64,000 nucleotides of DNA from Candidatus Methylomirabilia bacterium (GCA_041497115.1 JBGQFW010000006.1:5698-69697); one strand, 5' to 3'. Shown: positions 17,205 through 63,035, counted from the stretch's first letter. A program made the numbers and translations. Notes: a model not told the origin generated them from the letters alone.

Positions 17205-17702
17205 TCAGCGGTGGGAGAGGATGAGGTCGCAGAGCTCGCGGATGGCGCCGTGGCCGGCGCGGGCGCGGGTGACGTAGACGGCGGCGCGGCGGACGGCGGG
17301 GACGGCGTCGGCCACCGCGACGGGCAGGCCGATCGCACGCATCGCGGGGAGATCGCCGACGTCGTCGCCGACGTAGCAGACCTGAGCGGGGGTCAGGCGG
17401 TGGCGGGCGAGGAGCGCGGCGACCACCGCGGCCTTGTCGGTGACGTTCTGATGGACCTCGGCGACGCCGAGGTCGCGGGCGCGGCGGGTGACGATCGTCG
17501 TCTGCTTGCGCGTGACGAGCGCCACCAGGAGGCCGGCCTCCCGCAGCAGCACCAGCCCCTGCCCGTCGCGCACGTCGAAGCGCTTGAGCTCGTCGCCGTT
17601 CTCCGCGTAGTAGAGACCGCCGTCCGTCAGCACGCCGTCCACGTCGGTGACGAGCGCGCGGACGGCCGCCCACCGCGGGCGGCGGCGGCCGGCGGGGCTC
17701 AC
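17205..17702 (-). CDS. KdsC-type HAD-IIIA sugar-acid phosphate phosphatase
   Basis: GTG at 17702 overlaps the upstream stop (GTGA). 165 aa, with LVTDVDGVLTDG, KRF.VRDG, DK and YVGDDVGDLP motifs. Confidence 0.8.
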   Translation of the reverse strand: MSPAGRRRPRWAAVRALVTDVDGVLTDGGLYYAENGDELKRFDVRDGQGLVLLREAGLLVALVTRKQTTIVTRRARDLGVAEVHQNVTDKAAVVAALLARHRLTPAQVCYVGDDVGDLPAMRAIGLPVAVADAVPAVRRAAVYVTRARAGHGAIRELCDLILSHR

Positions 17703-18973
17703 GCGGGCGCGCACGGGTCGGCCGACACCCGGTCGCCGGCGAGCGCGAACGGCAGCGCCATGAAGACGGCCGCGACGAGCACCACCTCGGTGTCGCCGAC
17801 GTTGTATTCGAAGAGGCCCGCGACGACGAACGTCACCAGCGCCGCCAGCGAGCCCAGCACCAGCGCGCGGTCGTCGGCGGCGTCCGCCGGCAGCCGCCGC
17901 CGGATGGCGAGCCCCCGCCGAAAGAACGCCACGAGGACCCAGAGCCAGGCGGCCAGCCCCGGCACGCCGAGGGCGAGCGCCAGCTGCAGCGGCGTGTTGT
18001 GCACGTGGCTGGTCTGCCGGCGCATCGCCTCGGGCGGCGCGATCGTGGGGTACACGTGACGGAGCTGGCCGGGGCCGATGCCCGTGAGCGGGTGCTCGCC
18101 GGCCAGCCGCAGCCCCACCTCCATCATCGCCATCCGGTCGCGCACGGTGTCGTTGGTGGGATCCCCGATCGAGGCGACGCGGTCGCGCACGGTGGGCAGC
18201 GCCGCGACGAGGACGCCGCCCAGCAGGAGCAGCGCGGCGGCGATGGCGAGGCCGCGGCGGCCGAGGCCGGCGACCGCGGCAAGCGCGCCGGCGGCGAAGC
18301 CGATCCAGGCGCCGCGCACGTAGGTGAGCATCAGCGCGGTCGCGCTCACGAGCCACGCCGGCCCCAGCCAGCGCAGGTCCCCGCCGAGGCGGGCCAGCCG
18401 GGGCAGCGCGGCGGTCACGCTCATCGCGAGCGCACCGGCCAGCGTCATGTAGATGCTGAAGAAGCCGCGGGCGCGCGCGCACTTGCGCGTGAACCTCCAG
18501 AGCGGAGAGATCGCCGGCGCGTAGTAGTCGGGGCCCGGGCACACGCCCACCTGCACGATGCCCACGACGGCCGCGCCGGCCAGCGCCAGCACGAGCCAGG
18601 TGGTGAAGCGCCGCGCCGCGCCGGGGTCGGGAAGCGCGGCCACCAGCACGAAGATCGCGGCGAAATTCAGGACGGTGCGGGCCTCGATGAGGCTCTCGAC
18701 TGGGCGCGCCGAGGCGAGCGCGGCGACGGCCGTCCACGCCGCGAGCGCCGCCAGCGGCGGCAGCAGCGGCCAGCGCAGCGGGGCCAGCCGCCCCATGGCG
18801 CGCGCCACCAGCACCCACACCGCCAGCGCCCCGAGCGCGATCTGCGCCAGCGAGATCGATCCCGCCACGCCGATGGCGAACGCCACCAGCAGGCCGACGC
18901 GCGCGCGCTCGAGCCGGCCGGCGGGCGCCCCGGTGCCGGCGGCGATCAGCGGCTGCCGCAGGTCGGCGTCCAC
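17699..18973 (-). CDS. O-antigen ligase/polymerase-family (Wzy_C) polytopic membrane protein
   Basis: 424 aa and about 10-12 TM helices. A loop with SRGAWIGF... and HVHNTPLQLALALGVPG is typical of the Wzy_C domain. Confidence 0.75.
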   Translation of the reverse strand: MDADLRQPLIAAGTGAPAGRLERARVGLLVAFAIGVAGSISLAQIALGALAVWVLVARAMGRLAPLRWPLLPPLAALAAWTAVAALASARPVESLIEARTVLNFAAIFVLVAALPDPGAARRFTTWLVLALAGAAVVGIVQVGVCPGPDYYAPAISPLWRFTRKCARARGFFSIYMTLAGALAMSVTAALPRLARLGGDLRWLGPAWLVSATALMLTYVRGAWIGFAAGALAAVAGLGRRGLAIAAALLLLGGVLVAALPTVRDRVASIGDPTNDTVRDRMAMMEVGLRLAGEHPLTGIGPGQLRHVYPTIAPPEAMRRQTSHVHNTPLQLALALGVPGLAAWLWVLVAFFRRGLAIRRRLPADAADDRALVLGSLAALVTFVVAGLFEYNVGDTEVVLVAAVFMALPFALAGDRVSADPCAPA

Positions 18974-18974
18974 G

Positions 18975-20363
18975 CTAGTACGCGTTGCGATTGCCGAAGC
19001 CGAGCCAGAGCGTCTGCACCAGGATCTTGAGGTCGAAGCCGATGGACCAGCGCGCGATGTAGTCGAGGTCGTACTCGATGCGCTTCTCGATCGACGTGTT
19101 GCCGCGCCAGCCGTTGATCTGCGCCCAGCCGGTGATCCCCGCCTTCACCTTGTGGCGCAGCATGTAGCCGGGCACGCGGCGGCGGAAATCCTCGACGAAG
19201 CTCGGCCGCTCGGGCCGCGGCCCCACCAGGCTCATGTCGCCGCGCAGGACGTTGACGAGCTGGGGCAGCTCGTCGAGGCTGGAGCGGCGCAGGAACGCGC
19301 CGAGCGGCGTGCGGCGCGGATCGTCGGGCGTCGCCCACCGCGGGCCGGTGGCCGCCTCGGCGTCCACGCGCATGGTGCGGAACTTGAGCATGCGGAAGCG
19401 GCGGCCGTCGAGCCCCATGCGCTCCTGGCCGTAGAGCACCGGCCGGCCGGAGGTCAGCGCGATGGCGGCGGCGACGACGGCCATGACCGGCAGCGCCACC
19501 AGCAGGGCGGCGGCGCCGAGGCCGAGGTCGAACATCCGCTTGAGCACCTGGTTCCAGCCGTAGAGCGGCGACTCGCGCAGGTGGATGAACGGCACCGACT
19601 CGAACTCCTCGACGCCGCCGCGCAGCGAGGCGAGGCTGAAGAGGTCGGGGACGAAGTGGATGTCGACCGGCTCGTCGCCGATCTCGTTCAGCACGGCGCT
19701 GATGCGCGGATAGTCGCTGTGCGGCAGCGCGATGATGACGATGTCCACCGGCCGCGTGGCCAGCACCGTGCGGATCTCCTCGATGCCGCCGAGCCAGCGC
19801 ACGCCGGCGCCCTCGCCGTCCCGCTTGTCGCTCAGCAGGCCGAGCACCTGGATGCCGGTGTCGGGCCGCCGGCGCAGCACGCGCAGCACCTCGGCCGCCG
19901 GCTCGCCGCCGCCGACCACGACGGCGTAGCGCTGGTTGTACCCGCGGCGGCGGGCCACCCGGAGGATCTCGCGGAAGACGGCGCGCGAGAGGCTGGCGGT
20001 GACGATCGACGCGACCCAGAAGGTGCCGATGACGATGCGCGAGTAGTCGTACGACCGGAACGCGAAGGTCATGGTCGAGATCAGGACCAGCACGCCGAGG
20101 GTGGAGGCCTTGGTGATGTCGAACCACTCCGACAGGTGCGAGCCGAGCCGGTGCGGCCGGTAGAGGTCGAACGCCCGGTAGGCGATGCCCCACACGACGA
20201 GGATGGGCAGCAGCTGGAGCGCGTAGCCGCTGAACAGCGGGATGTCGCCGTGGCCGAACACGTGGAAGCGGAGGAGGTAGGCGGCCACCCAGCAGCCGAC
20301 GACCAGCGCCATGTCCGTCGCGAACGCCAGGTGCTCGAAGAGCCGCGAGTGCGCCTTCAGCAC
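18975..20363 (-). CDS. polyprenyl-phosphate hexose-1-phosphate transferase (WcaJ/WbaP-type initiating transferase)
   Basis: 462 aa from GTG at 20363 (alternative ATG at 20312). It has N-terminal TM helices, a Rossmann-like linker and a C-terminal sugar-transferase domain (KRMFD, MLKFRTM, DELPQLVNVLRGDMSLVGPRP). The rest of the 1108-aa tracked ORF is read-through. Confidence 0.9.
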   Translation of the reverse strand: MLKAHSRLFEHLAFATDMALVVGCWVAAYLLRFHVFGHGDIPLFSGYALQLLPILVVWGIAYRAFDLYRPHRLGSHLSEWFDITKASTLGVLVLISTMTFAFRSYDYSRIVIGTFWVASIVTASLSRAVFREILRVARRRGYNQRYAVVVGGGEPAAEVLRVLRRRPDTGIQVLGLLSDKRDGEGAGVRWLGGIEEIRTVLATRPVDIVIIALPHSDYPRISAVLNEIGDEPVDIHFVPDLFSLASLRGGVEEFESVPFIHLRESPLYGWNQVLKRMFDLGLGAAALLVALPVMAVVAAAIALTSGRPVLYGQERMGLDGRRFRMLKFRTMRVDAEAATGPRWATPDDPRRTPLGAFLRRSSLDELPQLVNVLRGDMSLVGPRPERPSFVEDFRRRVPGYMLRHKVKAGITGWAQINGWRGNTSIEKRIEYDLDYIARWSIGFDLKILVQTLWLGFGNRNAY

Positions 20364-21550
20364 AGCCGCCGCGCCTGGAACTCGCCGAAGCGCCCCTCGA
20401 CGTACTCGCGGATGCGCCGGGCGAAGATCGGCCGGTCGAAGCGGGCGGCCCGGGCCCGCAGGGCGGCCGGCTGGAAGCGATCGGTGGAGGCCTCGTACAC
20501 GGCCATCGCGGCGGCCAGCGCCTCCACCGTCTGCTCGCCGAAGAACACCGCGGTGGGCGGCTCGGCGCCGCCGAGCCCCACCATCGTCTCCAGCGCGCCG
20601 CCGCGGGCCAGCGCGATCGTGGGCCGACCGGCCGCTGCCGCCTCCAGCGGCACGATGCCGAAGTCCTCCACCGACGGGAAGAGCACGGCCCGGCAGCGCG
20701 CGTAGAGGTGGGCCACCTCGGCGTCCGGCCGCCAGCCGAGGAACGTCACGCCGGGCCCGGCCATCGCGCGCAGCCGCGCCTCCTCGGGGCCGCGGCCGAC
20801 GATGACGAGCCTCCGTCCGAGCCGCCCGGCCGCGGCGATGGCGAGGTCCACGCGCTTGTACGGCACCAGCGCCGAGACGACCAGGTAGGCGTCGTCGAGG
20901 TCGGCGCTGGGGCGGAAGCGCGCGAGGTCCACCGGCGGATGGATGACGTCGGCCGTGCGCCCGTAGACGCGGCGGATCCGGTCGGCGATGTGCTGCGAGA
21001 TCGCCACGAAGTCGTCCACGCCGGCGGTGCGGCGGTCCCAGCGCCGGAGCGCGGCCGCCGCCGGCGGCAGCGCCAGCCGGGTGAGCCAGCCGCCGCCGCG
21101 CGCGTAGTCCTCCTCGAGGTCCCAGACGTAGCGCATCGGCGTGAAGCAGTAGCAGAGGTGCAGCGCGTCCGGCGGCACGCGCACCGCCTTGGCCACGCAG
21201 TGGCTGAGCGAGAGCACCACGTCGAAGCCGCGCAGCGCGAAGCCGCGCACGGCGGCGGGGAACAACGGCAGGTACTGCCGGTAGCGCGCAGCGGCGGCGG
21301 GCAGCCGCTGCACGAACGAGGTCACGATGCGGTGGCGCTCGATCGTGGGGCTCACGCTGCCGCGCACGTGCAGCAGCGTGAACACCGGCGCGTCGGGGAA
21401 CAGCTCGCAGAAGACCTCGAGGCAGCGCTCGCCGCCCCGCATGCCGGTGAGCCAGTCGTGGACGAGGGCGACGCGGGGCCGCGCGGCCGGGACGAGCGCG
21501 GACCCCCGCTCGCTCAGTGCGAGCGAGCCGGCCGGCGCGATCGCCACCAC
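20357..21550 (-). CDS. glycosyltransferase family 4
   Basis: 397 aa. It carries VALVHDWLTGMRGGERCLE and a C-terminal E..G..PLEA motif (FPSVEDFGIVPLEAAAAGRP). Confidence 0.8.
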   Translation of the reverse strand: MVAIAPAGSLALSERGSALVPAARPRVALVHDWLTGMRGGERCLEVFCELFPDAPVFTLLHVRGSVSPTIERHRIVTSFVQRLPAAAARYRQYLPLFPAAVRGFALRGFDVVLSLSHCVAKAVRVPPDALHLCYCFTPMRYVWDLEEDYARGGGWLTRLALPPAAAALRRWDRRTAGVDDFVAISQHIADRIRRVYGRTADVIHPPVDLARFRPSADLDDAYLVVSALVPYKRVDLAIAAAGRLGRRLVIVGRGPEEARLRAMAGPGVTFLGWRPDAEVAHLYARCRAVLFPSVEDFGIVPLEAAAAGRPTIALARGGALETMVGLGGAEPPTAVFFGEQTVEALAAAMAVYEASTDRFQPAALRARAARFDRPIFARRIREYVEGRFGEFQARRLC

Positions 21551-21601
21551 TCGGCGCCGTCGGAGCGGGTGGGCCGCGAGCGTCGCATGCCGGGTATGGT
21601 A

Positions 21602-22717
21602 CTACAGCCCCAGCGCCGCCCTGTACACGCCCTCCAGCGCCGTCAGCATGTCGCGCACGTCGAACTCGCTCCGGGCGCGCGTGCGATTCTCGGCGCCCAG
21701 GCGGGCGCGCAGGTCGGCGTCGGCCAGCACGGCGCCCAGCCGCCCGGCCAGCGCCTCCACGGTGCCCGCCACGAGCCCCGCGGAGGCGGGGCCCAGCGTC
21801 TCGCGGTGGGCCGGGATGTCGCTGGCGACGACCGGCAGCCCCAGCGCCATCGCCTCGACGACGGCCAGCGGCAACCCCTCCTTGCGCGACGGCGCGGCGA
21901 AGACGTCGAAGGCGGCGAAGAGGCGGGCGGCCTCCGCCACCTCGCCGGCGAATCGCACGCGCTCGCCCAGCCGCAGCTCGGCGGCCAGCCCCCGCAGCGC
22001 CCGCTCCTCGGGGCCGTCGCCGATCAGCGCCACCGTCGGCGGCGGGGTCATGACGGCGGCCGCGCGCAGCAGCAGGTCCAGGCGCTTGACCTCGTCGAAG
22101 CGCGCCGCGGCGCCGATCACGGCGGCCGCCTGCGGCACCTGCAGCGCGGCCCGCGCGTCCCAGCGGTCGAGCGCGCGGGCCCCCAGGCGCGCGACGTCCA
22201 CGCCGTTGAGGATGACCACGCTCTGGCGGGGCTCGAACAGCCCGAGCGCCAGCCCCTCCTGCTCCTGCGCCCGCGAGACGTTGACGACGACCCGCGTCCA
22301 CGCCGACAGGCGACGCTCGAGGGCCAGGTAGGCCGCGCGCAGCGGACGCGGATAGCGCTCGTAGTGGATGCCGTGCAGCGTGTGGATCGCCGGCACACCG
22401 GTCATCCGCGCGGCGAGACGGGCGTGGAAGCCGGCGCCCTTGCCGTGCGAGTGCACGAGGCGCACGCCCCGGCGGCGGATCAGCCGCGCCAGGCGCAGCG
22501 TCGTGAGCGGCGACAAACCGCCGGCGGCGAGCGGGAGCGTCTCCACCCCGGCCTCGCGGAAGCGCGGGACGAGCGCGCCGCCGGCGGGCCCGGCCACGAT
22601 CGGCGTCCAGCCGCGCGCCCGCAGCCCGGTCGCCACCGCCAGCACGTGCTGCCCTCCCCCGCCCGCCTGCGTGGAGACGAGCACCTCGAGGATCGTGAGC
22701 GGGGCCGTGGCGCTCAC
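21602..22717 (-). CDS. glycosyltransferase family 4
   Basis: GTG at 22717 overlaps the upstream stop (GTGA). 371 aa, with a GGGQHV N-terminal motif and PSRKEGLPLAVVEAMALGLPVV. Confidence 0.85.
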   Translation of the reverse strand: MSATAPLTILEVLVSTQAGGGGQHVLAVATGLRARGWTPIVAGPAGGALVPRFREAGVETLPLAAGGLSPLTTLRLARLIRRRGVRLVHSHGKGAGFHARLAARMTGVPAIHTLHGIHYERYPRPLRAAYLALERRLSAWTRVVVNVSRAQEQEGLALGLFEPRQSVVILNGVDVARLGARALDRWDARAALQVPQAAAVIGAAARFDEVKRLDLLLRAAAVMTPPPTVALIGDGPEERALRGLAAELRLGERVRFAGEVAEAARLFAAFDVFAAPSRKEGLPLAVVEAMALGLPVVASDIPAHRETLGPASAGLVAGTVEALAGRLGAVLADADLRARLGAENRTRARSEFDVRDMLTALEGVYRAALGL

Positions 22718-23517
22718 GCGCGCGGGCCGGGACGGGCCGCCCGGAGGGCGCGGCGCAACGGGCGCGGCAGCGCCAGCGCCAGCGCCGGGCGCAGGGCGTA
22801 GAGCGCGCACCACGGCGGGTAGGCGCCGCTGCGCACGGCGCGCCAGCGCACGCGCGCCTCGGTGCGCAGGCGGTCGTCCTCGCGCTCGACCGACACGCGC
22901 CGGGCGCCGAGCCGGCGGACCACGAGGACCTCGGCGAGATTGGCCAGCCGCGTGACGCCGGCCAGGCGCATCCAGAGGTCGTAGTCCTGCGCCACCGCCA
23001 GCGTCTCGTCGTAGCCGCCCGCGCGCTCGAGCGCGGCGCGGCGCATGACCACCGAGGAGTGCACGAAGGGGTTGGCGCGGATCAGCGCGCGGCGCAGGGC
23101 GGCGTCGTCCGCGGGCGGCTGGACCAGGCGCACGGTGGCCCCGGCGGCGTCCACCTCGCGGGCGGCGGTGCCGAGCAGGCCGACCTCGGGGTGGCCCTCG
23201 AGGAACGCGCGCTGGCGGGCGAGCCGCTCGGGCAGGGCCCAGTCGTCGGCGTCCAGCCGCGCGATGAGATCCGCCTGCGCGGCGGCGAGCGCGCGGGTGA
23301 GCGCGCGGGTGAGGCCGGTGCGCTCCTGGCGTATCACACGAAGCCGCGGATCGCGCACCGCCGCCAGCAGCGCGGGCGTCGTGTCGGTGGAGCCGTCGTC
23401 CACGACGATCAGCTCGAGGTCGGACGCGGTCTGAGCCAGCACGCTGGCCACCGCGTCGGCCACCCACGGCGCGCCGTCGTGGACGGAGAGCAAGACCGAG
23501 ACGGCCGGCCGGCTCAT
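22714..23517 (-). CDS. glycosyltransferase family 2
   Basis: ATG at 23517 overlaps the upstream stop (ATGA). 267 aa, with VSVLLSVHDG, IVVDDGSTD and RLDADD. Confidence 0.85.
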   Translation of the reverse strand: MSRPAVSVLLSVHDGAPWVADAVASVLAQTASDLELIVVDDGSTDTTPALLAAVRDPRLRVIRQERTGLTRALTRALAAAQADLIARLDADDWALPERLARQRAFLEGHPEVGLLGTAAREVDAAGATVRLVQPPADDAALRRALIRANPFVHSSVVMRRAALERAGGYDETLAVAQDYDLWMRLAGVTRLANLAEVLVVRRLGARRVSVEREDDRLRTEARVRWRAVRSGAYPPWCALYALRPALALALPRPLRRALRAARPGPRA

Positions 23518-24452
23518 CGGTCCTTTCTGAACAGCAGATTGAAATACGGCAGCGCGAGCGACGGGGAGCGGCCGACGGCGCGCAGGACGCCGGCGGCGGC
23601 CGCGAACGCCGGCAGGGCGGCGCGGCGGGCGCGCGAGCGGGCGGTGGCGCGGAAGAACGCCAGGCCGTAGCCGGCGTCCTCGCTGACGTCCACCAGGCCG
23701 GCCGCGCCGTACGACGGCAGGCAGTCGGCGAGCGTGGCGTTGCGCCAGCCCGTGCCGTCGGCGGTGAACTCCGCGAAGCTCGTGGCGCGGTGCCGGTCGG
23801 GGCGCGCCCACCGCGCGTAGCGCCACGCCAGCCGCGGCGGCAGCCACTGCACGAGCGGCAGCCCGACCGAGTGCGTCTCCAGCGGGAAGGCCCGGTTCGG
23901 CGTGTCGAGGATCGCGATGTGGCCGCCGGGAGCGAGGACGCGGTAGTACTCGTCCACCTGCCGGCGCCGATGGCGGGCGGGCAGGTGCTCGACGACGCCC
24001 ACCGCCAGCACGAGATCGAAGCTGCCGTCGCCCCACGGCAGGCGGCAGGCTTCCGCCTGGTCGAGCTCCCGCACCTCGCGGACGACGCTCAGGCGGAGCT
24101 CCTCGACCTTGGCGCGCACGATCGTGACGAAGGCCGGATCGGTGTCGAACGTCGAGAGGGCCGCCACCTCGGGCTGCTCGGCGAGGTACTCCGTCATGTG
24201 ACCGAACGAGCAGCCGACCTCCAGCACGCGCAGGCCGCGCGCCCGGCGGGCGCGCAGGTAGTCGAACAGCGGGGCGAGGAAGCGCGGCCCGCGCGTCTCC
24301 TTGAATGCGAAGTAGAGCGGCGCCCGCCCGAGTCCCTTGCGCTCGATCAGCAGGCGGATGACGCGCTCGCTGTAGCGGGTGGTCCACTCGCGCCCGTCGG
24401 AGCGGAGGATTCGGCGGTCGCCGAGGTCCACGATCCGGAAGGGCTCGGCCAT
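23514..24452 (-). CDS. class I SAM-dependent methyltransferase
   Basis: 312 aa, with VLEVGCSFG (motif I) and YRVLAPGGHIAILD. Confidence 0.75.
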   Translation of the reverse strand: MAEPFRIVDLGDRRILRSDGREWTTRYSERVIRLLIERKGLGRAPLYFAFKETRGPRFLAPLFDYLRARRARGLRVLEVGCSFGHMTEYLAEQPEVAALSTFDTDPAFVTIVRAKVEELRLSVVREVRELDQAEACRLPWGDGSFDLVLAVGVVEHLPARHRRRQVDEYYRVLAPGGHIAILDTPNRAFPLETHSVGLPLVQWLPPRLAWRYARWARPDRHRATSFAEFTADGTGWRNATLADCLPSYGAAGLVDVSEDAGYGLAFFRATARSRARRAALPAFAAAAGVLRAVGRSPSLALPYFNLLFRKDR

Positions 24453-24466
24453 CGGCTCCCAGTGTG

Positions 24467-25288
24467 TCACGCCCGCCGGGCGACGACGAGCAGCATGTGG
24501 CCGAACAGCCGCAGCGAGGGCTCCGTGTAGAGCGCGGCGCGGATCGCCCCGCGCAGCCAGCCGCGCGCCCCTCCGCCGTGCGCCCCGCTGCCGCGCGCGC
24601 GCGCGGGCAACCCCGCGGCGGCGGGCGCGCCGGCGCGCAGCCGTGCCGCCAGCCGGCGCGGGAGCGCGGCGCGCAGCACGCGGGCCGGGTCGTAGGGGTG
24701 CGCGGCGAGCGGCGCGAAGCCGTGGCGGCCCAGCGCAGCCACCAGCTCGCCGCGCGAGAACGCGTACTGGTAGAAGCGTCCGCCGGCGGCGGCGAGCGCG
24801 CGGCCGCGGCGCCGGATCCACGGCGCGCCGAGGCGGCGCACACCGTTGACGTAGGGGACCGAGATCACCAGCGTGCCGCCGGGGGCCAGCACGCGCCGCG
24901 CCTCGGCGAGGATCGCGTCGGGGCCGGCCGCGTCGTGCTCGACGACGCCCAGCGAGACGTAGGCGGCGACGGCGCCGTCGCGCAGGGCCAGGCGCGTGAG
25001 CTCCATCGCGGCCAGCGGGGCGGGCGCCACGCGACGGCAGGCGGCCAGCGCCTCCACGCCCCAGTCCACCCCCACCGCCGCCCACCCGCGCTCGCGCAGC
25101 AGCAGCACGTACTGGCCCAGGCCGCACCCGCCCTCGAGCACCCGCCCGCCGCGGGGCAGCGCCCCGGTGATGAGCCCGGTCAGCGGCGAGCGCCGCGCCA
25201 GCGCCAGCAGCTCCTCGACCGAGTGGCCGCCCCAGTGGTCGCGCCAGAACTCGCGGTCGGCCGCGACCGAGTAGTAGGCGAGCCTCAC
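24467..25288 (-). CDS. class I SAM-dependent methyltransferase
   Basis: GTG at 25288 overlaps the upstream stop (GTGA). 273 aa, with VLEGGCGLG and RRVLAPGGTLVISVP. Confidence 0.8.
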   Translation of the reverse strand: MRLAYYSVAADREFWRDHWGGHSVEELLALARRSPLTGLITGALPRGGRVLEGGCGLGQYVLLLRERGWAAVGVDWGVEALAACRRVAPAPLAAMELTRLALRDGAVAAYVSLGVVEHDAAGPDAILAEARRVLAPGGTLVISVPYVNGVRRLGAPWIRRRGRALAAAGGRFYQYAFSRGELVAALGRHGFAPLAAHPYDPARVLRAALPRRLAARLRAGAPAAAGLPARARGSGAHGGGARGWLRGAIRAALYTEPSLRLFGHMLLVVARRA

Positions 25289-47978: not shown

Positions 47979-47982
47979 CTCG

Positions 47983-57004: not shown

Positions 57005-58683
57005 GACCGCGGCCTCACCTGCCAGAGCGTCTGGAGCCGTTCACCGAAGAGGTAGATCGGCTCCTGGGCCTCCTCCCAGTAGGTCAGCACCGGGACCAGA
57101 TCGTAGCGCTGCCGCAGCCCGGCCGCGAACGCCTCGAAGTCGCGCGTCGTGAACCGCTCGCCCGGCCGGCGCACGAGGGCGTGGTTGATGCCGAACAGCG
57201 TGTAGGGGCCGGGCACGAGGTTGTAGACGAACACCCGCCGGCCGAGCACGAGCTGGGTCGCGATGGTCTCGCGCACGACGCCGAAGCCGTCCTCCTTCGA
57301 CTTCTCGCGGAACACGTCCTTGACGTTAACGTGATGCTCGTCGTTGCGCGCCAGCACCGCGTCCAGCCCGGACTCGGCGGAGACGAAGAAGTCGTCGGCC
57401 CGGAACTCGCTGCGCGCGCGCGCGGCCAGCGCCTGCTGCTGGCGCCCGTAGCGATAGTAGGGCAGCATCGCGCCCCAGGCGTTGCCGGCAACGACCACCA
57501 CCAGCAGCGCGGCGACGAGGCCGACCTGGCGCCGGCACGCGCGTGGCCCGACGTCGGGCGCGAGCCGGGTCACGATCGGTCCGAGCAGCAGGAGGACCAG
57601 CAGCGGGGGCAGAGTCAGCAGGTGGTACTTGGCGGCGCCAGGCCAGAACCACGAGTTGAGGACGACCTTGCCGGCGAGCCACCACGCTCCGCACAGCACC
57701 AGCGCCAGCAGGCCGTGCTCGAGGACACGCCGACGCGCCCACCAGGCCTCCGCCGCGAGCGCGAGCAGCAGGCCACAGCCGACCACGCCGAGGCTCACGA
57801 GCGCGACCACCGTGCCGTGCGCGAAGAGCGCCGGCTCGCGCAGCGCGTCGCTCAGCACCTGCACGCCGAAGAGCAGCGCGCTGAGCTGGCCCTTGAGCAG
57901 CTTGAGCGGCGTGACGAGCACCCCCGTCGTCTCGTACACTTCGTGCGGTCGCCAGACTTGGCGCACGTTGATGATGTACCACGCGCCGAGCTCGTCCAGA
58001 CCCCGCGCGCCCTTCAGCGCCACGCCGACCAGGATCGACAGCGCGACGGTAGTCGCGACGCCGACGCCGACGTAGACGAGCGCGGCGCGCAGGGCGCGGC
58101 GCGGCGGCTGGCCGACGAAGCCGGCCGCCACCGCGCCGGCGCCGAACAAGACGGCGCTTCGCAGCAGCAGACCCTCCGCAGCGTTGAAGAACGCGAGGAC
58201 GCCGGCGAAGCGCCAGTCGTAGGGCCGTCCGCTCGTCCGCCGGCGCACGAACAGGTAGAACAGCCACAGCACGGCGCCGAGCGCCAGGTGGTGGGTGTCG
58301 GCGTTCACGTAGAACCAGGAGGCGAACGAGGTGGCCAGCAGCAGCGCGCCCAGCACGCCCAGCACGGGACCCGCGCCGAGCAGCACGAGCGTCTGGCCGA
58401 AGGCGGCGATGCCGCTGGCGGCCGCCAGCGCGTTCGCCGTCTGCACGACCGCGAGCGGCGTGAAGGGTCCGCCGGGGCCGGCCAGCGCGCGGATGAGCCA
58501 GTAAAAGATCGCGGCGGTGAGCGGCCAGTCGGCGATGAAGACGTCCGGCCGGTCGCCGCGGGCGAACTCGGGCAGGAGCCACTGCCCGTTGCCAGTGGGG
58601 ATCGCGGCGAACGTCAGCTCGTAAAGCAGGAACACGCCGGCGAAGACGGCCAGCCCCACCCGCCAGTCGGTGCGGGGCGGCAT
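57001..58683 (-). CDS. large polytopic membrane protein with a C-terminal soluble domain (unassigned; GT-C-like candidate)
   Basis: 560 aa, with more than 10 TM helices and a ~170-aa tail (FRADDFFVSAESGLD...). It lies immediately downstream of a short GT2. Confidence 0.6.
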   Translation of the reverse strand: MPPRTDWRVGLAVFAGVFLLYELTFAAIPTGNGQWLLPEFARGDRPDVFIADWPLTAAIFYWLIRALAGPGGPFTPLAVVQTANALAAASGIAAFGQTLVLLGAGPVLGVLGALLLATSFASWFYVNADTHHLALGAVLWLFYLFVRRRTSGRPYDWRFAGVLAFFNAAEGLLLRSAVLFGAGAVAAGFVGQPPRRALRAALVYVGVGVATTVALSILVGVALKGARGLDELGAWYIINVRQVWRPHEVYETTGVLVTPLKLLKGQLSALLFGVQVLSDALREPALFAHGTVVALVSLGVVGCGLLLALAAEAWWARRRVLEHGLLALVLCGAWWLAGKVVLNSWFWPGAAKYHLLTLPPLLVLLLLGPIVTRLAPDVGPRACRRQVGLVAALLVVVVAGNAWGAMLPYYRYGRQQQALAARARSEFRADDFFVSAESGLDAVLARNDEHHVNVKDVFREKSKEDGFGVVRETIATQLVLGRRVFVYNLVPGPYTLFGINHALVRRPGERFTTRDFEAFAAGLRQRYDLVPVLTYWEEAQEPIYLFGERLQTLWQVRPRS

Positions 58684-58684
58684 G

Positions 58685-59362
58685 CTACCGGAGCGCCTCG
58701 CGCGCCATCACGCGGAGGATCCGCAGGCCGTCGAGGAGCGCGTTGACCTTGGAGCGGCCGGCGGTGCGCTTGCGCTCGGCGGAGGGGATCTCGGCGAAGC
58801 GGAATCCTGCCCGGCGCGCGCGGATGAGGAACTCCACGATGTACTCGAAGCCGGTGGAGGAGGGGGTGATCGTCTCGAAGACCCGGCGGCGCATCGCCGC
58901 GTAGAAGAAGAGCACGTCGGAGCTCGGCACCCCGAACAGCCACCGGATCAGGAAGGTGAAGCCGGCGTTGCCCACCCGCCGCACGAGCGTGTCGTCCTCG
59001 CTGCCCGAGGCGGGCAGATAGCGTGACCCCAGCGCGACGTCGGCCCCCGCGGCGACCGCCGCCAGCAGGTGCGGGATGTCGTCGAGGGTGTAGGAGCCGT
59101 CGGCGTCCGCCAGCACCGCGACGTCGCCGCGGGCGTGGCGGAAGCCGGCCGCGATGGCGTCGCCGTAGCCCCGCCCGGGCTGCTCGACGACCCGGTACCC
59201 CAGCCGGCGCACGAGGTCGGGGGTGCCGTCGGTCGAGTGGCCGTCCACCACCAGCACCTCGTCGATCACGCCGGCGGGAATCTCCTTCAGCACGCCGCCG
59301 ATGGCGTCGACCTCGTCGAGCGTGGGGATGATGAGCGTGACCGTCATCCGGGGCGCGCTCAC
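58685..59362 (-). CDS. short GT2 glycosyltransferase (Dpm1/polyprenyl-phosphate glycosyltransferase-like)
   Basis: GTG at 59362 (GTGA overlap) or ATG at 59347. It carries LIIPTLDE, EVLVVDGHSTDGT and DADGSY. Confidence 0.85.
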   Translation of the reverse strand: MSAPRMTVTLIIPTLDEVDAIGGVLKEIPAGVIDEVLVVDGHSTDGTPDLVRRLGYRVVEQPGRGYGDAIAAGFRHARGDVAVLADADGSYTLDDIPHLLAAVAAGADVALGSRYLPASGSEDDTLVRRVGNAGFTFLIRWLFGVPSSDVLFFYAAMRRRVFETITPSSTGFEYIVEFLIRARRAGFRFAEIPSAERKRTAGRSKVNALLDGLRILRVMAREALR

Positions 59363-59907
59363 CGGTCCGCCTCCACGTTGAGGCTGACGAGCCGGCCGTG
59401 CTCCCGGTCGAGGTGGGGGATGTAGGCCTGGGCGAAGTCGTCGTGGTCGCGATGGATCGTCTGGCGCCAGTCCCAGCGGCGCACGCGGGTGAAGCCGGCC
59501 GCCTCCAGCGTCGCCCGCAGGCTGTCCTCGTCGTAGACCGTCCGGTGGTACACGATGCGCGGCCCGTCGGGCGTCGCCACCTCGATGCGCCCGTACAGCG
59601 GCCCGTGGATCAGTCCCAGGTCGCCGGAGGCGCGGTAGACCTCGACGAGGGCGGCGAAGTCCGGCACCGCCAGCCGCAGCGTCCCGCCCGGCCGGAGCAC
59701 GCGGCGCCACTCGGCGAGGACGTCACGCACCTCGACCCGGTCGAAGTACTCCAGCACGTGGCAGGCGTAGACGAGGTCGGCCGCGCCGTCGCCGAACATC
59801 GGCAGCGTGCGGACGTCGTGGCGGTGGTCGATGTGCGGGAAGTCGGCGAGGTCGACGTGCACGAATCCCGGGAGACGGCGCTTGCCGCACCCCAGGTGCA
59901 GGTTCAC
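59359..59907 (-). CDS. class I SAM-dependent methyltransferase (Methyltransf_11-like)
   Basis: GTG at 59907 overlaps the upstream stop (GTGA). 182 aa, with NLHLGCG, ACHVLEYF and RRVLRPGGTLRLAVP. Confidence 0.75.
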   Translation of the reverse strand: MNLHLGCGKRRLPGFVHVDLADFPHIDHRHDVRTLPMFGDGAADLVYACHVLEYFDRVEVRDVLAEWRRVLRPGGTLRLAVPDFAALVEVYRASGDLGLIHGPLYGRIEVATPDGPRIVYHRTVYDEDSLRATLEAAGFTRVRRWDWRQTIHRDHDDFAQAYIPHLDREHGRLVSLNVEADR

Positions 59908-60995
59908 GCCCGGCTCGTGCGATAGAACGTCCGGATCTCGTCGCCGATGCGGGCGATGGTCTCGTCGTCGAGGAACGACGACGACGGCAGCCAGAGTCCC
60001 CGGCGTGAGATCGACTCGGCCACCGGATAGCGGGCGGCCAGCCGGTAGGGCGCCTGGGTGTGGACGGGCGGATAGAACGGACGCGAGCCGATCCCCCGCC
60101 CGCGCAGATGCTCGCGCAGCGCGGCGGGGTCGGGGACGAGCACGTCGATGAACCACGGCGAGGTCGCCTCGAGATCCGTCGGCAGGAACTCGACCTCGGG
60201 GACGTCGGCCAGCGCGGCCCGGTAGCGCGCGAACATCGCCTTCTTGCGCTCCACGCGCCAGGCCAGCTTGGTCATCTGGGCGAGGCCGACCACCGCCTGG
60301 AGGTCAGTGAACTTGAAGTTGAAGCCGAGCGCCACGTGGTCGTCGACGCCGTCCCGCGAGCGGCCGAAGTCGCGCACCTTGCGGATCCGGTCGATCAGCG
60401 CGTCGTCGTCGGTCACCAGCGCCCCGCCCTGGCCCGTGGTGATGACCTTCGGCGCGCTGAAGGAGAAGCTGCCGATCTCCCCGAAGGTGCCGAGGTGGCG
60501 GCCGCGCCAGCGCGAGCCGAGCGACTGCGCGGCGTCCTCCACCAGGGCGAGGCCGCGCCGGCGCGCCAGCGCCACCGCGCGCTCCATGTCCGGCGCGCGG
60601 CCGTTGATGCTCACCACCATGATCGCCTTCGTGCGCGGGGTGATGGCCCGCTCGGCCAGGTCGAGATCGAGGCAGGCGGTGGCGGGCTCGACGTCCACAA
60701 GGACCGGCCGGGCGCCCGCCAGCAGCACGGTGTTGGCGGAGGCGATCATCGTGTAGTCGGGCACGAGCACCTCGTCCCCCGCCCCCACGCCGAGGGCGGC
60801 GAGGGCGACGTAGAGGCTCACCGTGCCGTTGCTCACCACCGAGGCGTGGCGGCTGCCGACGTACGCCGCGATGACGCGCTCGAACTCGCGCGTCTGCTTG
60901 AACTCGGTCAGCCAGCCGCCGGAGTCGAGGTACTCGAGGACGGCCTTCTTCTCCTCCTCGCCGATCCACGGCTCCATCTGGTTGATGAAACTCAT
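59904..60995 (-). CDS. DegT/DnrJ/EryC1-family sugar aminotransferase
   Basis: ATG at 60995 overlaps the upstream stop (ATGA). 363 aa, with SNGTVSL, GDEVLVPDYT and SFSFSAPKVITTGQGG (Lys present). Confidence 0.85.
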   Translation of the reverse strand: MSFINQMEPWIGEEEKKAVLEYLDSGGWLTEFKQTREFERVIAAYVGSRHASVVSNGTVSLYVALAALGVGAGDEVLVPDYTMIASANTVLLAGARPVLVDVEPATACLDLDLAERAITPRTKAIMVVSINGRAPDMERAVALARRRGLALVEDAAQSLGSRWRGRHLGTFGEIGSFSFSAPKVITTGQGGALVTDDDALIDRIRKVRDFGRSRDGVDDHVALGFNFKFTDLQAVVGLAQMTKLAWRVERKKAMFARYRAALADVPEVEFLPTDLEATSPWFIDVLVPDPAALREHLRGRGIGSRPFYPPVHTQAPYRLAARYPVAESISRRGLWLPSSSFLDDETIARIGDEIRTFYRTSRA

Positions 60996-61921
60996 CGCCG
61001 GGCCCGGTACCACTCCACCGTGCGGCGGAGCCCGTCCTCGAGGCTCACCCGCGGGGTGAAGCCGAGGACCCGGTCGGCCCGCGCGCGGCTGGCGCCCCGG
61101 CGCGGATCGCCGCCGCCCTTGTCGGCGTCGAAGTGGATCGCGCCCTTGAACCCGGTGAGGCGGGCGATGAGCCGCACGAGGTCGCCGATGCTGATCTCGT
61201 GGCCGGAGGCGAGGTTGACGTACTGCCCGCCGGGGAGGCGCTCGCCCGCGGCGGCCAGCCCGGCCGCCACGTCCTCGACGTACAGGAAATCGCGCGTCGG
61301 CGTCCCGTCGCCCCACACCACCAGCTCGGGCGGCTGGTCGCAGCACTTGATGATGGTCGCGGGGATCACGTGCGACTTCTCGGCCTCGAAGTGGTCGCGG
61401 GGGCCGTAGGAGTTGGCCGAGAGCACGACCACCGCATCCAGCCCGAACTCGCGGTGGTACATCTCGGCCATGACGACGAGGTCGCGCTTGGAGAGGCCGA
61501 TGCCGAGGTGCGTCGCGGCGATCGGCCCCTCGTGCAGCTGCTCCTCGCGCAGCGGCGAGGGCGCCGCCGCCGGGTACGCGAGCAGGTTGCCGAGCGCGAC
61601 GAGCTTACGCACCCCCGCCTGCCGCGCCGCCTCGAGGACGTGCAGGTTGATGAGCGCGCAGCTGTAGTACTGCGAGGCCGGATAGGCGCGGCTGAAGGCG
61701 ATGCCCCCGGTGGTGGCGGCCAGGTGGAACACCACGTCGCACCCCTCGACCGCCCTCCGGGCGTTGTCGAAGACGCGGAGGTCGCAGTCGCGGCTGCGGG
61801 GGACCACGACGTCGGCCGGGCGCACGCCGCGGTCACGCGCGAGGTGCTCCACGAGGAAGGAGCCGATGAAGCCCGCGCCGCCGGTCACCAGGATCTTCCG
61901 GCCGGCGTAGAAATCGGTCAC
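60992..61921 (-). CDS. Fcl-family SDR paralog lacking the canonical catalytic Ser/Cys/Tyr
   Basis: 309 aa with a GTG start. TGGAGFIG is retained. A gap-free by-eye alignment to 27557..28507 gives GSVCAYP to GNLLAYP and PYGLAKK to GIGLSKR. Confidence 0.8.
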   Translation of the reverse strand: MTDFYAGRKILVTGGAGFIGSFLVEHLARDRGVRPADVVVPRSRDCDLRVFDNARRAVEGCDVVFHLAATTGGIAFSRAYPASQYYSCALINLHVLEAARQAGVRKLVALGNLLAYPAAAPSPLREEQLHEGPIAATHLGIGLSKRDLVVMAEMYHREFGLDAVVVLSANSYGPRDHFEAEKSHVIPATIIKCCDQPPELVVWGDGTPTRDFLYVEDVAAGLAAAGERLPGGQYVNLASGHEISIGDLVRLIARLTGFKGAIHFDADKGGGDPRRGASRARADRVLGFTPRVSLEDGLRRTVEWYRARR

Positions 61922-61934
61922 GCCGGCGCCCGCC

Positions 61935-63035
61935 CTACCAGTCGACGCGGCCGACCCACTTGTCCTGGTTCTCCACGTACCACTTGATCGTCTCGCGCAG
62001 GCCGTCCTCCCACGAGTACTCCGGCACCCAGCCGGTGAGCGTGGTGAGCTTGGCGTGGTCCACGCGCAGCTCCTCCACCTCGCTCCGGCCCAGGCGCGCG
62101 CGGCCTTCGGTGTCGGCGCGCAGCTCCTTGTCGCCCCAGTAGCCGTGCTCCTGCCCGATACGGAGAATCATCCGGTACCAGTCGAGGATGGAGATCGCCC
62201 GGCCGGAGCCGTACACGTACGTCTCGCCGGGCGTGCCGAACAGCGTGGCGAAGATGTGGCCGCGCACGCCGTCCCGCACGAAGCAGAAGTCGCGCTTGGA
62301 CAGCACGTAGCCGAGCTGGATCACGTCGTGCGTCAGCGCCTGCGTGATGATCGTCCCGGTGATGAAGCGCGGGCTCTGGCGGGGGCCGTAGTTGTTGAAC
62401 ATCCGCGTCACCACCGCCGGGACCGAGTACGCCGCGCAGTAGTTGCGGGTCAGGAAGTCGGCGGCGAGCTTGGCCGTCGCGTACACGCTCTGGGGATTGA
62501 CCGGCGAGCGCTCGTCGAGGATCAGCCCGCCGGAGTCGTCGAAGCGGTAGTGCTCGCGGACGTCGGCCCGGACGTTGCCGTACTCCTCGGAGGAGCCGGC
62601 GGTGTCGAACCGGAGCAGGTCGAGCTCGAGGTCCACGATGGACTGGAGCAGGTTGACCGTGCCCAGCACGTTGACGTTCAGCGTCTCGTAGGGGCGCGCC
62701 CAGCACTCGCCCACGTGGGCCTGGGCGCCGAGGTGGAAGATCACCGGCCGGTCGCCGAAGCCCTTGAGGATGCGCAGCGTCTGCAGCATCGCCTGCTTGT
62801 CGGTGAGGTCGCCGCGGTGGATCGTCACCCGGCGCTGCAGGGAGCCGATGTTGTGCAGCATGCCCGACGAGGTGGCCCGCACGAGGACGTGGACGTTGGC
62901 CCCGTACCCCACCAGCGTCTCGGTGAGGTGCGACCCGACGAATCCGTCCGCGCCGGTGACGAGCACCGTGCGGCCGGTCAGAAGCTCACGGATCCGGCTT
63001 TCCATCGCGGCTGGCGGGGTCGAGGCGACCGGCAC
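61935..63035 (-). CDS. NDP-sugar 4,6-dehydratase (RmlB/Gmd-type extended SDR)
   Basis: 356-366 aa (GTG at 63035 or ATG at 63005), with VTGADGFVGSH, GSSEEYG, YATAKLA (YxxxK) and MFNNYGPRQ. Confidence 0.85.
   Translation of the reverse strand: MPVASTPPAAMESRIRELLTGRTVLVTGADGFVGSHLTETLVGYGANVHVLVRATSSGMLHNIGSLQRRVTIHRGDLTDKQAMLQTLRILKGFGDRPVIFHLGAQAHVGECWARPYETLNVNVLGTVNLLQSIVDLELDLLRFDTAGSSEEYGNVRADVREHYRFDDSGGLILDERSPVNPQSVYATAKLAADFLTRNYCAAYSVPAVVTRMFNNYGPRQSPRFITGTIITQALTHDVIQLGYVLSKRDFCFVRDGVRGHIFATLFGTPGETYVYGSGRAISILDWYRMILRIGQEHGYWGDKELRADTEGRARLGRSEVEELRVDHAKLTTLTGWVPEYSWEDGLRETIKWYVENQDKWVGRVDW

Follow-up and report, generated by a model that had tools for sequence, protein, structure and literature searches.

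Several described systems resemble, in part, the locus reported here, a 44-gene array at positions 17205-63035 of a 64,000-nucleotide stretch of DNA from a Candidatus Methylomirabilia bacterium (GCA_041497115.1, JBGQFW010000006.1:5698-69697; the whole stretch is hereafter called the window). The O-antigen of Helicobacter pylori is made by a Wzk/WaaL route that is related to the Campylobacter Pgl pathway (PMC2841628). As in that route and in the C. jejuni Pgl system (PglC/PglK/PglB), an undecaprenyl-diphosphate (Und-PP)-linked glycan would here be built in the cytoplasm; as in H. pylori, an MsbA/PglK-like ABC half-transporter would take the place of Wzx, a Wzy_C-family ligase would act en bloc, and Wzy polymerase, Wzz and Wza would have no part. 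The likeness has its limits. The window initiates with a WcaJ-type phosphoglycosyltransferase (PGT), whereas H. pylori initiates with WecA; its genes lie in one 46-kb array, whereas those of H. pylori are scattered; its exporter falls below the PglK and MsbA equivalog cutoffs; and it would add two extracytoplasmic cassettes of GT2 and GT-C glycosyltransferases (GTs), sulfation and a tailored nonulosonate.

For the sugars there are further close precedents. In C. jejuni, Cj1295 is required for di-O-methylglyceroyl-pseudaminic acid (di-O-methylglyceroyl-Pse), and the Cj1295/Pse genes are thereby tied to an N-acyl-modified Pse (PMC3068675). The window likewise mixes Pse genes with genes for an aminopeptidase-like protein, a FabH-like protein, an acyl carrier protein (ACP) and methyltransferases; unlike the C. 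jejuni system, it has no Maf transferases or flagellin context, belongs to a lipid-linked pathway, and holds an AAC(3)-like acyltransferase together with a module of B12-radical S-adenosylmethionine (SAM) enzyme, GFO oxidoreductase and class-III aminotransferase. In the O-antigen clusters of Legionella pneumophila non-Sg1 strains, PseG, a class-III aminotransferase and an acylneuraminate cytidylyltransferase are neighbours (PMC3694923). The window shares with these O-antigen loci a class-III aminotransferase resembling glutamate-1-semialdehyde (GSA) aminomutase beside a CMP-nonulosonate synthetase candidate and PseG, but the B12-radical SAM enzyme and the GFO oxidoreductase are not in the Legionella gene table (PMC3694923).

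The array is an unusually large, cassette-rich, Pse-containing surface-glycan locus whose assembly logic has clear precedents. We propose, with a probability of roughly 55%, that it is the strain-variable surface-glycan locus of a diderm Rokubacterium, of the uncultured phylum Methylomirabilota, and would make one Und-PP-linked hetero-oligosaccharide by an ABC-flippase/ligase route. Profile hidden Markov model searches (with Pfam for the full set of 44, with NCBIfam for 30) back every functional class that an earlier note on this DNA had named: nonulosonic acid synthesis (PseB and PseC above NCBIfam cutoffs), 3,6-dideoxyhexose-type chemistry (an E1/ColD-type enzyme with histidine for the pyridoxal phosphate (PLP) lysine), two B12-radical SAM enzymes (both domains above Pfam cutoffs), an acylation module (FabH-like protein, ACP, AAC(3)-like acyltransferase), synthesis of 3'-phosphoadenosine 5'-phosphosulfate (PAPS) with sulfotransfer (a fused ATP sulfurylase/adenosine 5'-phosphosulfate (APS) kinase and a sulfotransferase, by Pfam), five class-I methyltransferases, and eight GTs, five GT4 and three GT2. 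The note was right to see a glycan array but left out its assembly genes, namely the WcaJ-type PGT, the ABC exporter and the Wzy_C protein. Its two large unassigned membrane proteins are both there; one (GTC560) models as GT-C and the other (GTC518) is a member of the DUF6798 family. As it had stated, no Pfam family for Wzx (Polysacc_synt), Wzz/Wzc or Wza occurs in the 44 proteins, and Wzx, Wzz and Wza are likewise missing from the scanned flanks, which took in all but four small left-flank genes.

Assembly core and candidate acceptor

The genes for initiation, chain extension, flipping and ligation are as follows; all are on the minus strand (-).

18975-20363 (-), WcaJ-type undecaprenyl-phosphate hexose-1-phosphate transferase, the initiating PGT; TIGR03023, 485 bits (cutoff 411)
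51561-53411 (-), type-IV ABC exporter half-transporter, MsbA/HepA/PglK-like; ABC_membrane and ABC_tran
17699-18973 (-), Wzy_C O-antigen-ligase/O-oligosaccharyltransferase-like membrane protein; Wzy_C, 80 bits (cutoff 31.7)
17205-17702 (-), KdsC/YrbI-family HAD sugar-acid phosphate phosphatase; TIGR01670, 148.6 bits (cutoff 107)
35172-36317 (-), GT4a glycosyltransferase, with a probable CTG start overlapping the upstream TGA; Pfam
33138-34430 (-), GT4b; Pfam
32029-33141 (-), GT4c; Pfam
21602-22717 (-), GT4d; Pfam
20357-21550 (-), GT4e, first gene of a conserved 3' block; Pfam and synteny
22714-23517 (-), GT2c, Leloir-type GT2; Pfam

A member of the WcaJ family by its score, the PGT would start the chain on undecaprenyl phosphate (Und-P). 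Its extension would fall to the five GT4 enzymes, the Leloir GT2 and a GT-B enzyme that resembles TagF, the last of these probably adding the nonulosonate. The lipid-linked glycan would then be flipped by the ABC exporter, which scores 179 bits with the PglK model (cutoff 1000), 406 with MsbA (cutoff 602) and 398 with HepA (cutoff 725) and whose PDB matches are generic ABCB proteins. Once finished, the glycan would be handed over en bloc by the Wzy_C ligase-like protein, with lipid A-core or, possibly, proteins as the acceptor. The Wzy_C protein carries the motif H[NSQ]x9Gxx[GTY] as HNTPLQLALALGVPG, and four Methylomirabilota orthologues keep it; we take the motif to be a mark of O-antigen ligases (WaaL) and O-oligosaccharyltransferases (O-OTases) alike, one that does not tell them apart. 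A PDB sequence search with the protein gave no meaningful match. Since the PGT, the ABC exporter and the ligase-like protein would supply a route of their own, the lack of Wzx, Wzz and Wza is expected.

The possible protein acceptor leads to another reading, in which the array, with unchanged chemistry, is a general protein O-glycosylation locus directed at S-layer or outer-membrane proteins, the Wzy_C protein being an O-OTase of the PglL/PilO type that places the Und-PP-linked glycan on Ser/Thr residues of secreted proteins or GTC560 being a PglB-like oligosaccharyltransferase; we think this unlikely. The Wzy_C domain and its motif are common to WaaL and O-OTases, but Pfam gave Wzy_C only, with no match of the PglL_A type, and a KdsC-family gene adjoins the Wzy_C gene. 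Although the best Foldseek matches of GTC560 are STT3 and PglB, the protein is short (560 aa), has no visible WWDxG-like motif, and is encoded directly after a polyprenyl-phosphate-sugar-synthase-like GT2, a better fit to the logic of ArnT/GtrC. Neither a polymerase nor a chain-length regulator is present, and the roughly seven cytoplasmic transferases fit a defined oligosaccharide, as protein glycosylation would have it. Methylomirabilis cells are diderm and have an S-layer, but neither N- nor O-glycans were detected on the S-layer protein of M. lanthanidiphila (PMC8671808); the WaaL of H. pylori glycosylates proteins as well (PMC9553153). Because of the S-layer without detected glycan and the KdsC-family gene beside the ligase gene, the acceptor tilts to lipid A-core, as in the ABC-flippase/ligase route that we prefer.

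Nonulosonic acid genes and the radical SAM module

The nonulosonate in this glycan would come from the following genes.

50563-51534 (-), PseB, inverting UDP-GlcNAc 4,6-dehydratase; TIGR03589, 468.2 bits (cutoff 407.75)
55811-57004 (-), PseC, UDP-4-amino-4,6-dideoxy-AltNAc transaminase; TIGR03588, 441.5 bits (cutoff 423.5)
38080-39117 (-), PseG-like UDP-sugar hydrolase; PseG model, 115 bits (cutoff 154), full-length alignment
39110-39571 (-), GNAT N-acetyltransferase, candidate for the PseH role; GNAT Pfam domains, PseH model 27 bits (cutoff 93)
39582-40631 (-), NeuB-family nonulosonate synthase, candidate for the PseI role; Pfam NeuB, 257 bits
44519-45286 (-), CTP_transf_3 cytidylyltransferase, candidate for the PseF role; CTP_transf_3, 95 bits
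41917-43173 (-), unk418, 418-aa GT-B-fold protein, TagF-like; AlphaFold2 predicted local distance difference test (pLDDT) 92.8, Foldseek
43170-44522 (-), DUF4910/DUF2172 aminopeptidase-like protein with a helix-turn-helix; Pfam, PDB 3k9t ("putative peptidase"), E 8e-34

We propose that PseB and PseC, together with the probable PseH-, PseG-, PseI- and PseF-like enzymes, make a Pse-type nonulosonic acid. The synthase fits the NeuB equivalog (316 bits, cutoff 400) better than the PseI model (267 bits, cutoff 340). The CTP_transf_3 protein is the sole cytidylyltransferase in the locus and the only CMP-sugar synthetase candidate. Where scores lie below curated cutoffs, the substrate assignments are soft. 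The unk418 protein matches, by Foldseek, TagF (TM-score 0.56), MshA and UDP-GlcNAc 2-epimerases, and a PDB sequence search with it gave no meaningful match. It accompanies the Pse genes in four related loci (L005, L092, L093 and L094; L-numbers denote comparison contigs or loci of relatives), and its modelled fold and this company lead us to propose it as the nonulosonate transferase.

Two further groups of genes lie among the Pse genes, an acyl cassette (first four lines) and a radical SAM module (last three lines).

49956-50570 (-), unk204, 204-aa protein at the head of the acyl cassette; no family
49039-49959 (-), FabH/β-ketoacyl-ACP synthase III-like protein, Cys-His-Asn triad intact; Pfam/NCBIfam
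48237-49046 (-), AAC(3)-like N-acyltransferase, Antibiotic_NAT; Pfam/NCBIfam
47983-48225 (-), ACP; Pfam
46284-47978 (-), rSAM1, B12-binding radical SAM enzyme; B12-binding 65.5 and Radical_SAM 49.3 bits, above Pfam cutoffs
45286-46272 (-), GFO/IDH/MocA oxidoreductase (GFO), sugar 3-dehydrogenase-like; Pfam/NCBIfam
40628-41917 (-), AT3, class-III aminotransferase, GSA-aminomutase-like; PRK06209, 462 bits (cutoff 486)

The DUF4910 protein matches Cj1295 by family description only. A Cj1295-type protein, a FabH with an intact triad, an ACP and an AAC(3)-like transferase together suggest N-acyl remodelling; the Cj1295-like, amidase-type protein and the acyl cassette would re-acylate the nonulosonate on nitrogen. 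The unk204 protein has no match in Pfam, NCBIfam or the PDB.

The radical SAM module is not confined to the window. The order rSAM1-GFO-cytidylyltransferase-AT3 adjoins Pse genes in loci of 48-73% GC and beyond Rokubacteria, among them a contig of 60% GC (L007) and a metagenome-assembled genome (MAG) labelled Anaerolineae (L008, 48% GC). Across the module loci rSAM1 is 74-85% identical, as against 38-63% for the neighbouring enzymes, and the rSAM1 proteins of L007 and L008 are 74-77% identical to that of the window despite a GC content of 0.60 and 0.48 versus 0.73, with 38-60% identity for the enzymes beside it. Such conservation points to unusually strong constraint or to recent horizontal spread. 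In two related loci (L007 8989-11043 and L092 12760-14823) a single protein of about 685 aa combines the cytidylyltransferase with the class-III aminotransferase, and the two therefore probably share a substrate.

Instead of the canonical CX3CX2C, rSAM1 has CX6CX2C (CPYASRACDYC, residues ~285-295), and about 106 of 120 homologues keep this spacing. In about 14 homologues (~930 aa), a LAGLIDADG-type intein sits directly before the third cysteine of this Fe-S motif (...ACDY / intein / CYAAY), so that the third cysteine is the +1 residue; these include the protein of L094 10001-12793 (P0081) as well as P0041, P0061, P0067, P0072, P0074, P0077-P0079, P0082-P0084 and P0102.

Aminoglycoside tailoring combines an oxidoreductase, an aminotransferase and a B12-radical SAM methylase. 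By this analogy, rSAM1, GFO and AT3 would oxidize, aminate and possibly C-methylate the nonulosonate. It is a tentative idea, to which we give rather less than even odds, that the module acts on a Pse-type sugar, probably once this has become a CMP-sugar, and yields an undescribed class of additionally aminated, C-methylated nonulosonic acids. A live alternative is that GFO and AT3 make a 3-amino sugar such as UDP-GlcNAc3N. Two observations count on the side of that alternative or against the tie to Pse: the second-best model of GFO is UDP-GlcNAc 3-dehydrogenase, and PseC is not in the examined stretch of L093. In a searchable paper library we found no work that joins nonulosonic or pseudaminic acid with radical SAM enzymes, and none on a gene cluster of nonulosonic acid, sulfotransferase, methyltransferase and glycosylation genes.

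Other decoration of the chain would be the task of the genes below, whose families are clear and whose substrates are predicted from context: methyltransferases, a deacetylase and a PAPS-dependent sulfotransferase.

54042-55745 (-), bifunctional ATP sulfurylase/APS kinase (PAPS synthase); Pfam
36314-37288 (-), sulfotransferase (Sulfotransfer_3); Pfam
37313-38083 (-), class-I SAM methyltransferase MTa; Pfam
31370-32032 (-), methyltransferase MTb; Pfam
24467-25288 (-), methyltransferase MTc; Pfam
23514-24470 (-), methyltransferase MTd; Pfam
34427-35170 (-), polysaccharide deacetylase; Pfam

Two GT2/membrane-protein cassettes

Cassette 1 (first six lines) and cassette 2 (last five lines) comprise the following genes.

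61935-63035 (-), NDP-hexose 4,6-dehydratase of the extended short-chain dehydrogenase/reductase (SDR) type, LegB/RmlB/Gmd-like; NCBIfam matches all below cutoffs
60992-61921 (-), Fcl1, Fcl-like SDR epimerase/reductase; 46% identical to Fcl2
59904-60995 (-), DegT-family sugar aminotransferase; PLP lysine kept
59359-59907 (-), small class-I methyltransferase-like protein, 182 aa; Pfam
58685-59347 (-), GT2a, soluble, polyprenyl-phosphate hexose synthase-like (AglJ/DPM/PpgS); 40% identical to GT2b
57001-58683 (-), GTC560, 560-aa polytopic membrane protein with a predicted GT-C fold; AlphaFold2 and Foldseek
29797-31326 (-), rSAM2, B12-binding radical SAM enzyme; 52.6 and 60.6 bits, canonical CX3CX2C (CPFQCTFC)
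28504-29775 (-), E1/ColD-type PLP 3-dehydratase; RfbH, 333 bits (cutoff 423)
27557-28507 (-), Fcl2, Fcl/ColC-like epimerase-reductase; Fcl, 275 bits (cutoff 500)
26865-27560 (-), GT2b, paralogue of GT2a; 40% identical
25285-26841 (-), GTC518, 518-aa polytopic membrane protein; DUF6798 family by family search

Because their GT2s are 40% and their SDRs 46% identical, we regard these as two paralogous cassettes of the order PLP enzyme, Fcl-like SDR, GT2, membrane protein. Each would make a modified 6-deoxyhexose, of a 4-amino type in cassette 1 and of a ColD-type 3,6-dideoxy type in cassette 2; each GT2 would load its sugar on polyprenyl phosphate, and the polytopic membrane GT would attach it outside the cytoplasm. 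In this they resemble ArnC/ArnT, GtrB/GtrC and PpgS/Rv3779, where a small GT2 of the polyprenyl-phosphate-sugar-synthase kind stands beside a large polytopic membrane GT. GT2a reaches 128 bits with the AglJ model (cutoff 325), 104 with dolichyl-phosphate-hexose transferase (cutoff 375) and 53 with PpgS (cutoff 370). Unlike ArnC/ArnT and GtrB/GtrC, the locus has no flippase of the GtrA or ArnE/F kind, and GT2a and GT2b have no C-terminal transmembrane helices; the predicted 4-amino-4,6-dideoxy- and 3,6-dideoxyhexoses are not known donors of the ArnC/ArnT route; and of the membrane proteins, GTC560 has about seven detectable homologues and GTC518 belongs to an uncharacterised DUF family.

GTC560 has about 10 predicted transmembrane segments and a C-terminal soluble domain. 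It has no match in Pfam, NCBIfam or PDB sequences, and a word-indexed search of 5.8 billion clustered proteins gave seven homologues. The AlphaFold model (pLDDT 77.7, predicted TM-score 0.81) does support a GT-C fold: Foldseek returned STT3, PglB, ALG12, DPY19 and ArnT (5f15 among the PDB matches) with probability 1.0 and TM-scores of 0.41-0.51. Of the remote homologues of GTC518, 41 of 50 have DUF6798 and no other Pfam family occurs among them; in the first extracytoplasmic loop, D45 is kept in 49 of 50 members and D25 in 41 of 50. A PDB sequence search with GTC518 gave no meaningful match, and a GT-C-like role is suggested for it by context only. That context recurs: of the 41 metagenome loci with enough upstream sequence, 27 have a GT2 gene as the immediate upstream neighbour of the GTC518 homologue.

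In the E1/ColD-type protein of cassette 2, histidine replaces the PLP lysine; its SHH aligns to the VKA and PKV of two aminotransferases (aminotransferase sequence SFHPVKAITTGEGG). We take this replacement to be the signature of E1/ColD 3-dehydratases. No E3-reductase partner for the enzyme occurs in the locus, as in the ColD route, and an Fcl-like SDR adjoins; for these two reasons a ColD/ColC-like 3,6-dideoxyhexose branch fits better than an E1/E3 pair. The arrangement thus resembles both colitose ColD/ColC and the RfbH E1 enzyme in its DegT fold, its histidine and the Fcl-like SDR next to it, but differs in that the RfbH and Fcl scores listed above are below cutoffs, that there is no Gmd equivalog, and that a B12-radical SAM gene precedes the pair. 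The Gmd model gives 105 bits (cutoff 415) and the CDP-glucose dehydratase model 79 bits (cutoff 278). The position of rSAM2 ahead of the ColD/Fcl2 pair suggests an additional modification such as C-methylation.

Locus organization, relatives and alternative readings

With a G+C content of ~73-74%, the window has 193 open reading frames of at least 100 aa over all frames, and at ~74% G+C raw lists of such frames are useless. Genes were therefore called from third-position GC (GC3) and codon-usage log-odds, with starts then adjusted by junction candidates and homology. The calls bear out the single-strand run that the earlier note had described: exactly 44 genes, every one on the minus strand, fill 17205-63035, with ~99.5% of bases coding and no plus-strand reading frame that has a coding signal by codon usage or GC3. 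The largest gap is 65 nt, ahead of the PAPS synthase gene. Where the note had put exact 4-nt ATGA/GTGA overlaps at about 21 of 43 junctions, we count 20, with an in-frame start permitting one at up to 23-24; 8-nt overlaps occur three times, 1-nt overlaps twice and a 7-nt overlap once, so that 26 of 43 junctions overlap in all. GTG, said to be frequent, starts 24 of the 44 genes, ATG 19 and CTG one. The CTG belongs to GT4a: only with a start at 36317 ("CTGA") is the junction with the sulfotransferase gene tight, the alternatives being GTG 36401 (an 88-nt overlap) and GTG 36116 (a 197-nt gap), and this CTG is homologous to the GTG start ("GTGA") of the L005 orthologue. It may be a rare CTG start at which a ribosome re-initiates, or else a start codon that has decayed. 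For the first locus gene, 63035, 63005 and 62966 are candidate starts.

Same-strand junctions of the left flank show the exact 4-nt overlap as well (5 of 15), so the overlap frequency is a trait of this high-GC genome and not of the locus. GC3 per gene is uniform across the locus (0.93-0.99) and holds no compositional trace of recent foreign DNA, from which it follows that the cassettes stem from similar genomes. The only matches in a repeat search were weak ones between DegT paralogues, and no insertion sequences or cassette scars appeared. Scanning the window for Rfam families and tRNAs gave nothing, so there is neither a riboswitch nor a tRNA-linked island.

The signals and genes at the borders are these.

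63573-63602 (-), sigma-70-like promoter match TTGACA-18-TATCGT upstream of the UPF0047 gene; consensus match only
63069-63497 (-), UPF0047/YjbQ gene, a conserved 5' neighbour and not a glycan gene; Pfam, 69% identical to the L005 orthologue at the same position
53408-54031 (-), MarR/HTH_24 EPS-associated-type regulator (EPS, exopolysaccharide); EPS-associated MarR model, 65 bits (cutoff 88)
17134-17149 (-), terminator-like GC hairpin with a T-rich tail, directly downstream of the last locus gene

The minus-strand run goes on past 63035 with the UPF0047 gene and, from 63643 to the end of the window, an ABC permease gene. The promoter-like site is a possible start of the transcription unit, and consensus scans found internal terminator-like hairpins in the locus no more often than expected by chance. 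The tight same-strand packing and these signals are compatible with one long transcript and prove nothing. Since the larger gaps (65, 51, 43, 26 and 24 nt) coincide with cassette borders, internal promoters are plausible.

Relatives place the locus in a fixed chromosomal site. Exact matches to its proteins come from a MAG (GCA_041495465.1) and two JGI soil metagenomes (3300053058 and 3300052991), homologues are labelled Rokubacteria or Methylomirabilota, and the best match in a collection of species-representative genomes is 73% identical; in the literature we found nothing of relevance that joins Rokubacteria with polysaccharide. L005 and the window, in which cassettes are inserted, have the 5' end (UPF0047-MarR-ABC-PseB-PseC) in common, and the loci of L093 and L094 begin with MarR-ABC-PseB. 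The 3' end (GT4e-PGT-WzyC, then an anti-sigma-like gene, an extracytoplasmic function (ECF) sigma factor, folK and folB) is kept in L010, L011 and L016 and, in part, in the short contig L012; in the window folB, folK, the ECF sigma gene and the anti-sigma-like gene, whose product has a single transmembrane segment and no Pfam match, lie at 14810-16926 on the plus strand, convergent to the 3' end. Between these ends a backbone recurs, MarR-ABC-PseB-(PseC)-PseG-unk418-NeuB-GNAT followed by rSAM1-GFO-CTP-AT3-MT-GT4a-GT4b-GT4c-MT-MT-GT2 (CTP, the cytidylyltransferase; MT, methyltransferase). To it the window adds cassette 1 and the PAPS synthase (also in L091), unk204-FabH-NAT-ACP, the DUF4910 gene, the sulfotransferase, in place of which L092 has a different one, and cassette 2. 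Soil contigs commonly have the last of these with MTc-MTd-GT2c-GT4d-GT4e-PGT behind it (L099, L103, L107, L112 and L114). At L093 1037-2586, a TylF-type methyltransferase and a 2OG-Fe(II) oxygenase lie just upstream of MarR, the position of the window's cassette 1, and this pair is another case of cassette exchange at the 5' end. From these comparisons the locus would behave as an O-antigen/K locus whose site is fixed and whose middle varies between conserved ends, and it seems clearly to have grown by addition of cassettes to a backbone common to its relatives. The synteny search that the earlier note had called for thus finds relatives with the locus at the same site, and the window as an expanded mosaic that is not unique. 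The claim that its functions are rarely seen together was overstated: many soil metagenome contigs also have the right-hand third, several Rokubacterial contigs the Pse/radical SAM/GT4 backbone, and L091 and L092 PAPS synthase or sulfotransferase genes.

Two observations concern the left part of the window. A gene resembling rpoA (alpha insert, dimerisation and C-terminal domains; 7381-8391 (-)) stands alone among plus-strand metabolic genes, with gaps of 481 and 177 nt at its sides and outside its customary ribosomal-protein setting, and may be a second copy. Two stretches of ~460-480 nt each (2927-3390 and 6900-7380) have no called gene, Rfam match or tRNA.

This mosaic structure bears on whether one glycan is made at all. 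Several separate systems might be packed together, for example GT2/GT-C cassettes that, like ArnC/ArnT, act on lipid A, core or some other polymer, Pse destined for flagellin or the like, and a GT4/PGT polysaccharide, a reading that we hold to be distinctly unlikely. The gaps at cassette borders would suit it, but 99.5% of the locus is coding, 26 of 43 junctions overlap and internal terminator-like sites do not exceed chance. Cassettes are gained and lost independently among relatives; cassette 2, on the other side, is embedded between backbone methyltransferase and GT genes in many contigs. The MarR-type regulator gene, which heads the locus in relatives, is internal in the window, and the KdsC-like gene has no role in the Pse pathway, but the locus holds a single initiating transferase, a single exporter and a single ligase, and no Maf-type flagellin glycosyltransferase.

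Still less probable, in our estimate, is a Wzy-dependent repeat-unit polysaccharide (capsule, EPS or polymeric O-antigen), with polymerisation by the Wzy_C protein, flipping by the ABC exporter or by a Wzx encoded elsewhere, and Wzz and Wza genes elsewhere in the genome: some Wzy polymerases do belong to Pfam Wzy_C, initiation by a WcaJ-type enzyme is typical for colanic-acid-like EPS and the regulator weakly matches the EPS-associated MarR model (65 bits, cutoff 88), but scans of the 64-kb window gave no family of Wzx, Wzz/PCP or Wza/OPX, the conserved ligase-type motif is present, and relatives keep PGT and Wzy_C adjacent with no export genes in the flanks. Three other ideas were discarded, a flagellin-glycosylation island for its want of Maf genes and its lipid-linked initiation enzyme, an actinobacterial cell-wall glycopolymer (suggested by GC content) since homologue taxonomy gave Rokubacteria instead, and an aminoglycoside-like antibiotic cluster since the PGT, the ligase and the many GT4 genes argue for a surface glycan.

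The proposal of one Und-PP-linked surface glycan made by the ABC-flippase/ligase route must itself be set against a number of points that weigh against it. The organism is an uncultured MAG, and the pathway is a prediction from its genes. The PseG-, PseH-, PseI- and PseF-like proteins, the RfbH- and Fcl-like proteins, the GT2 polyprenyl-phosphate synthase and the ABC exporter all score below NCBIfam cutoffs; the PseF model fails on the cytidylyltransferase (26 bits, cutoff 206), to which KdsB models are closer, and the exporter is generic ABCB-type, at 179 bits against a PglK cutoff of 1000. By sequence, the Wzy_C protein is indistinguishable from a Wzy polymerase or a PglL O-OTase. GTC560 matches STT3/PglB oligosaccharyltransferases as much as ArnT/ALG12, with TM-scores of just 0.41-0.51, and its family has no invariant acidic residue in loop 1 (D44 in 5 of 7, D52 in 4 of 7). 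GTC518 has no similarity to GTC560 (by hhalign, sequence and family profile) or to any GT-C family that we could detect. Pfam found no small flippase of the GtrA/ArnEF type for polyprenyl-phosphate sugars among the 44 genes, and the colitose route would want a GDP-mannose dehydratase equivalog, of which the locus has none.

Rokubacteria are abundant, uncultured soil bacteria, and we know of nothing established about their cell surface. Taken with its many relatives, the locus appears to be the main variable surface-glycan locus of the lineage, and its conserved ends and exchangeable cassettes recall the O-antigen or K loci of pathogens. Several leads follow from it: a set of B12-radical SAM enzyme, oxidoreductase and aminotransferase that several lineages link with genes for nonulosonic acids; two cassettes of a GT2 and a membrane transferase, by which unusual deoxy sugars may be delivered by way of polyprenyl phosphate, the partner in one being a very rare GT-C-fold family and in the other DUF6798; and glycan sulfation in a soil bacterium. 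If the radical SAM module does make a new class of nonulosonic acid, then, together with the two polyprenyl-phosphate sugar cassettes and sulfation, Rokubacteria would have a glycan chemistry without a characterised counterpart.

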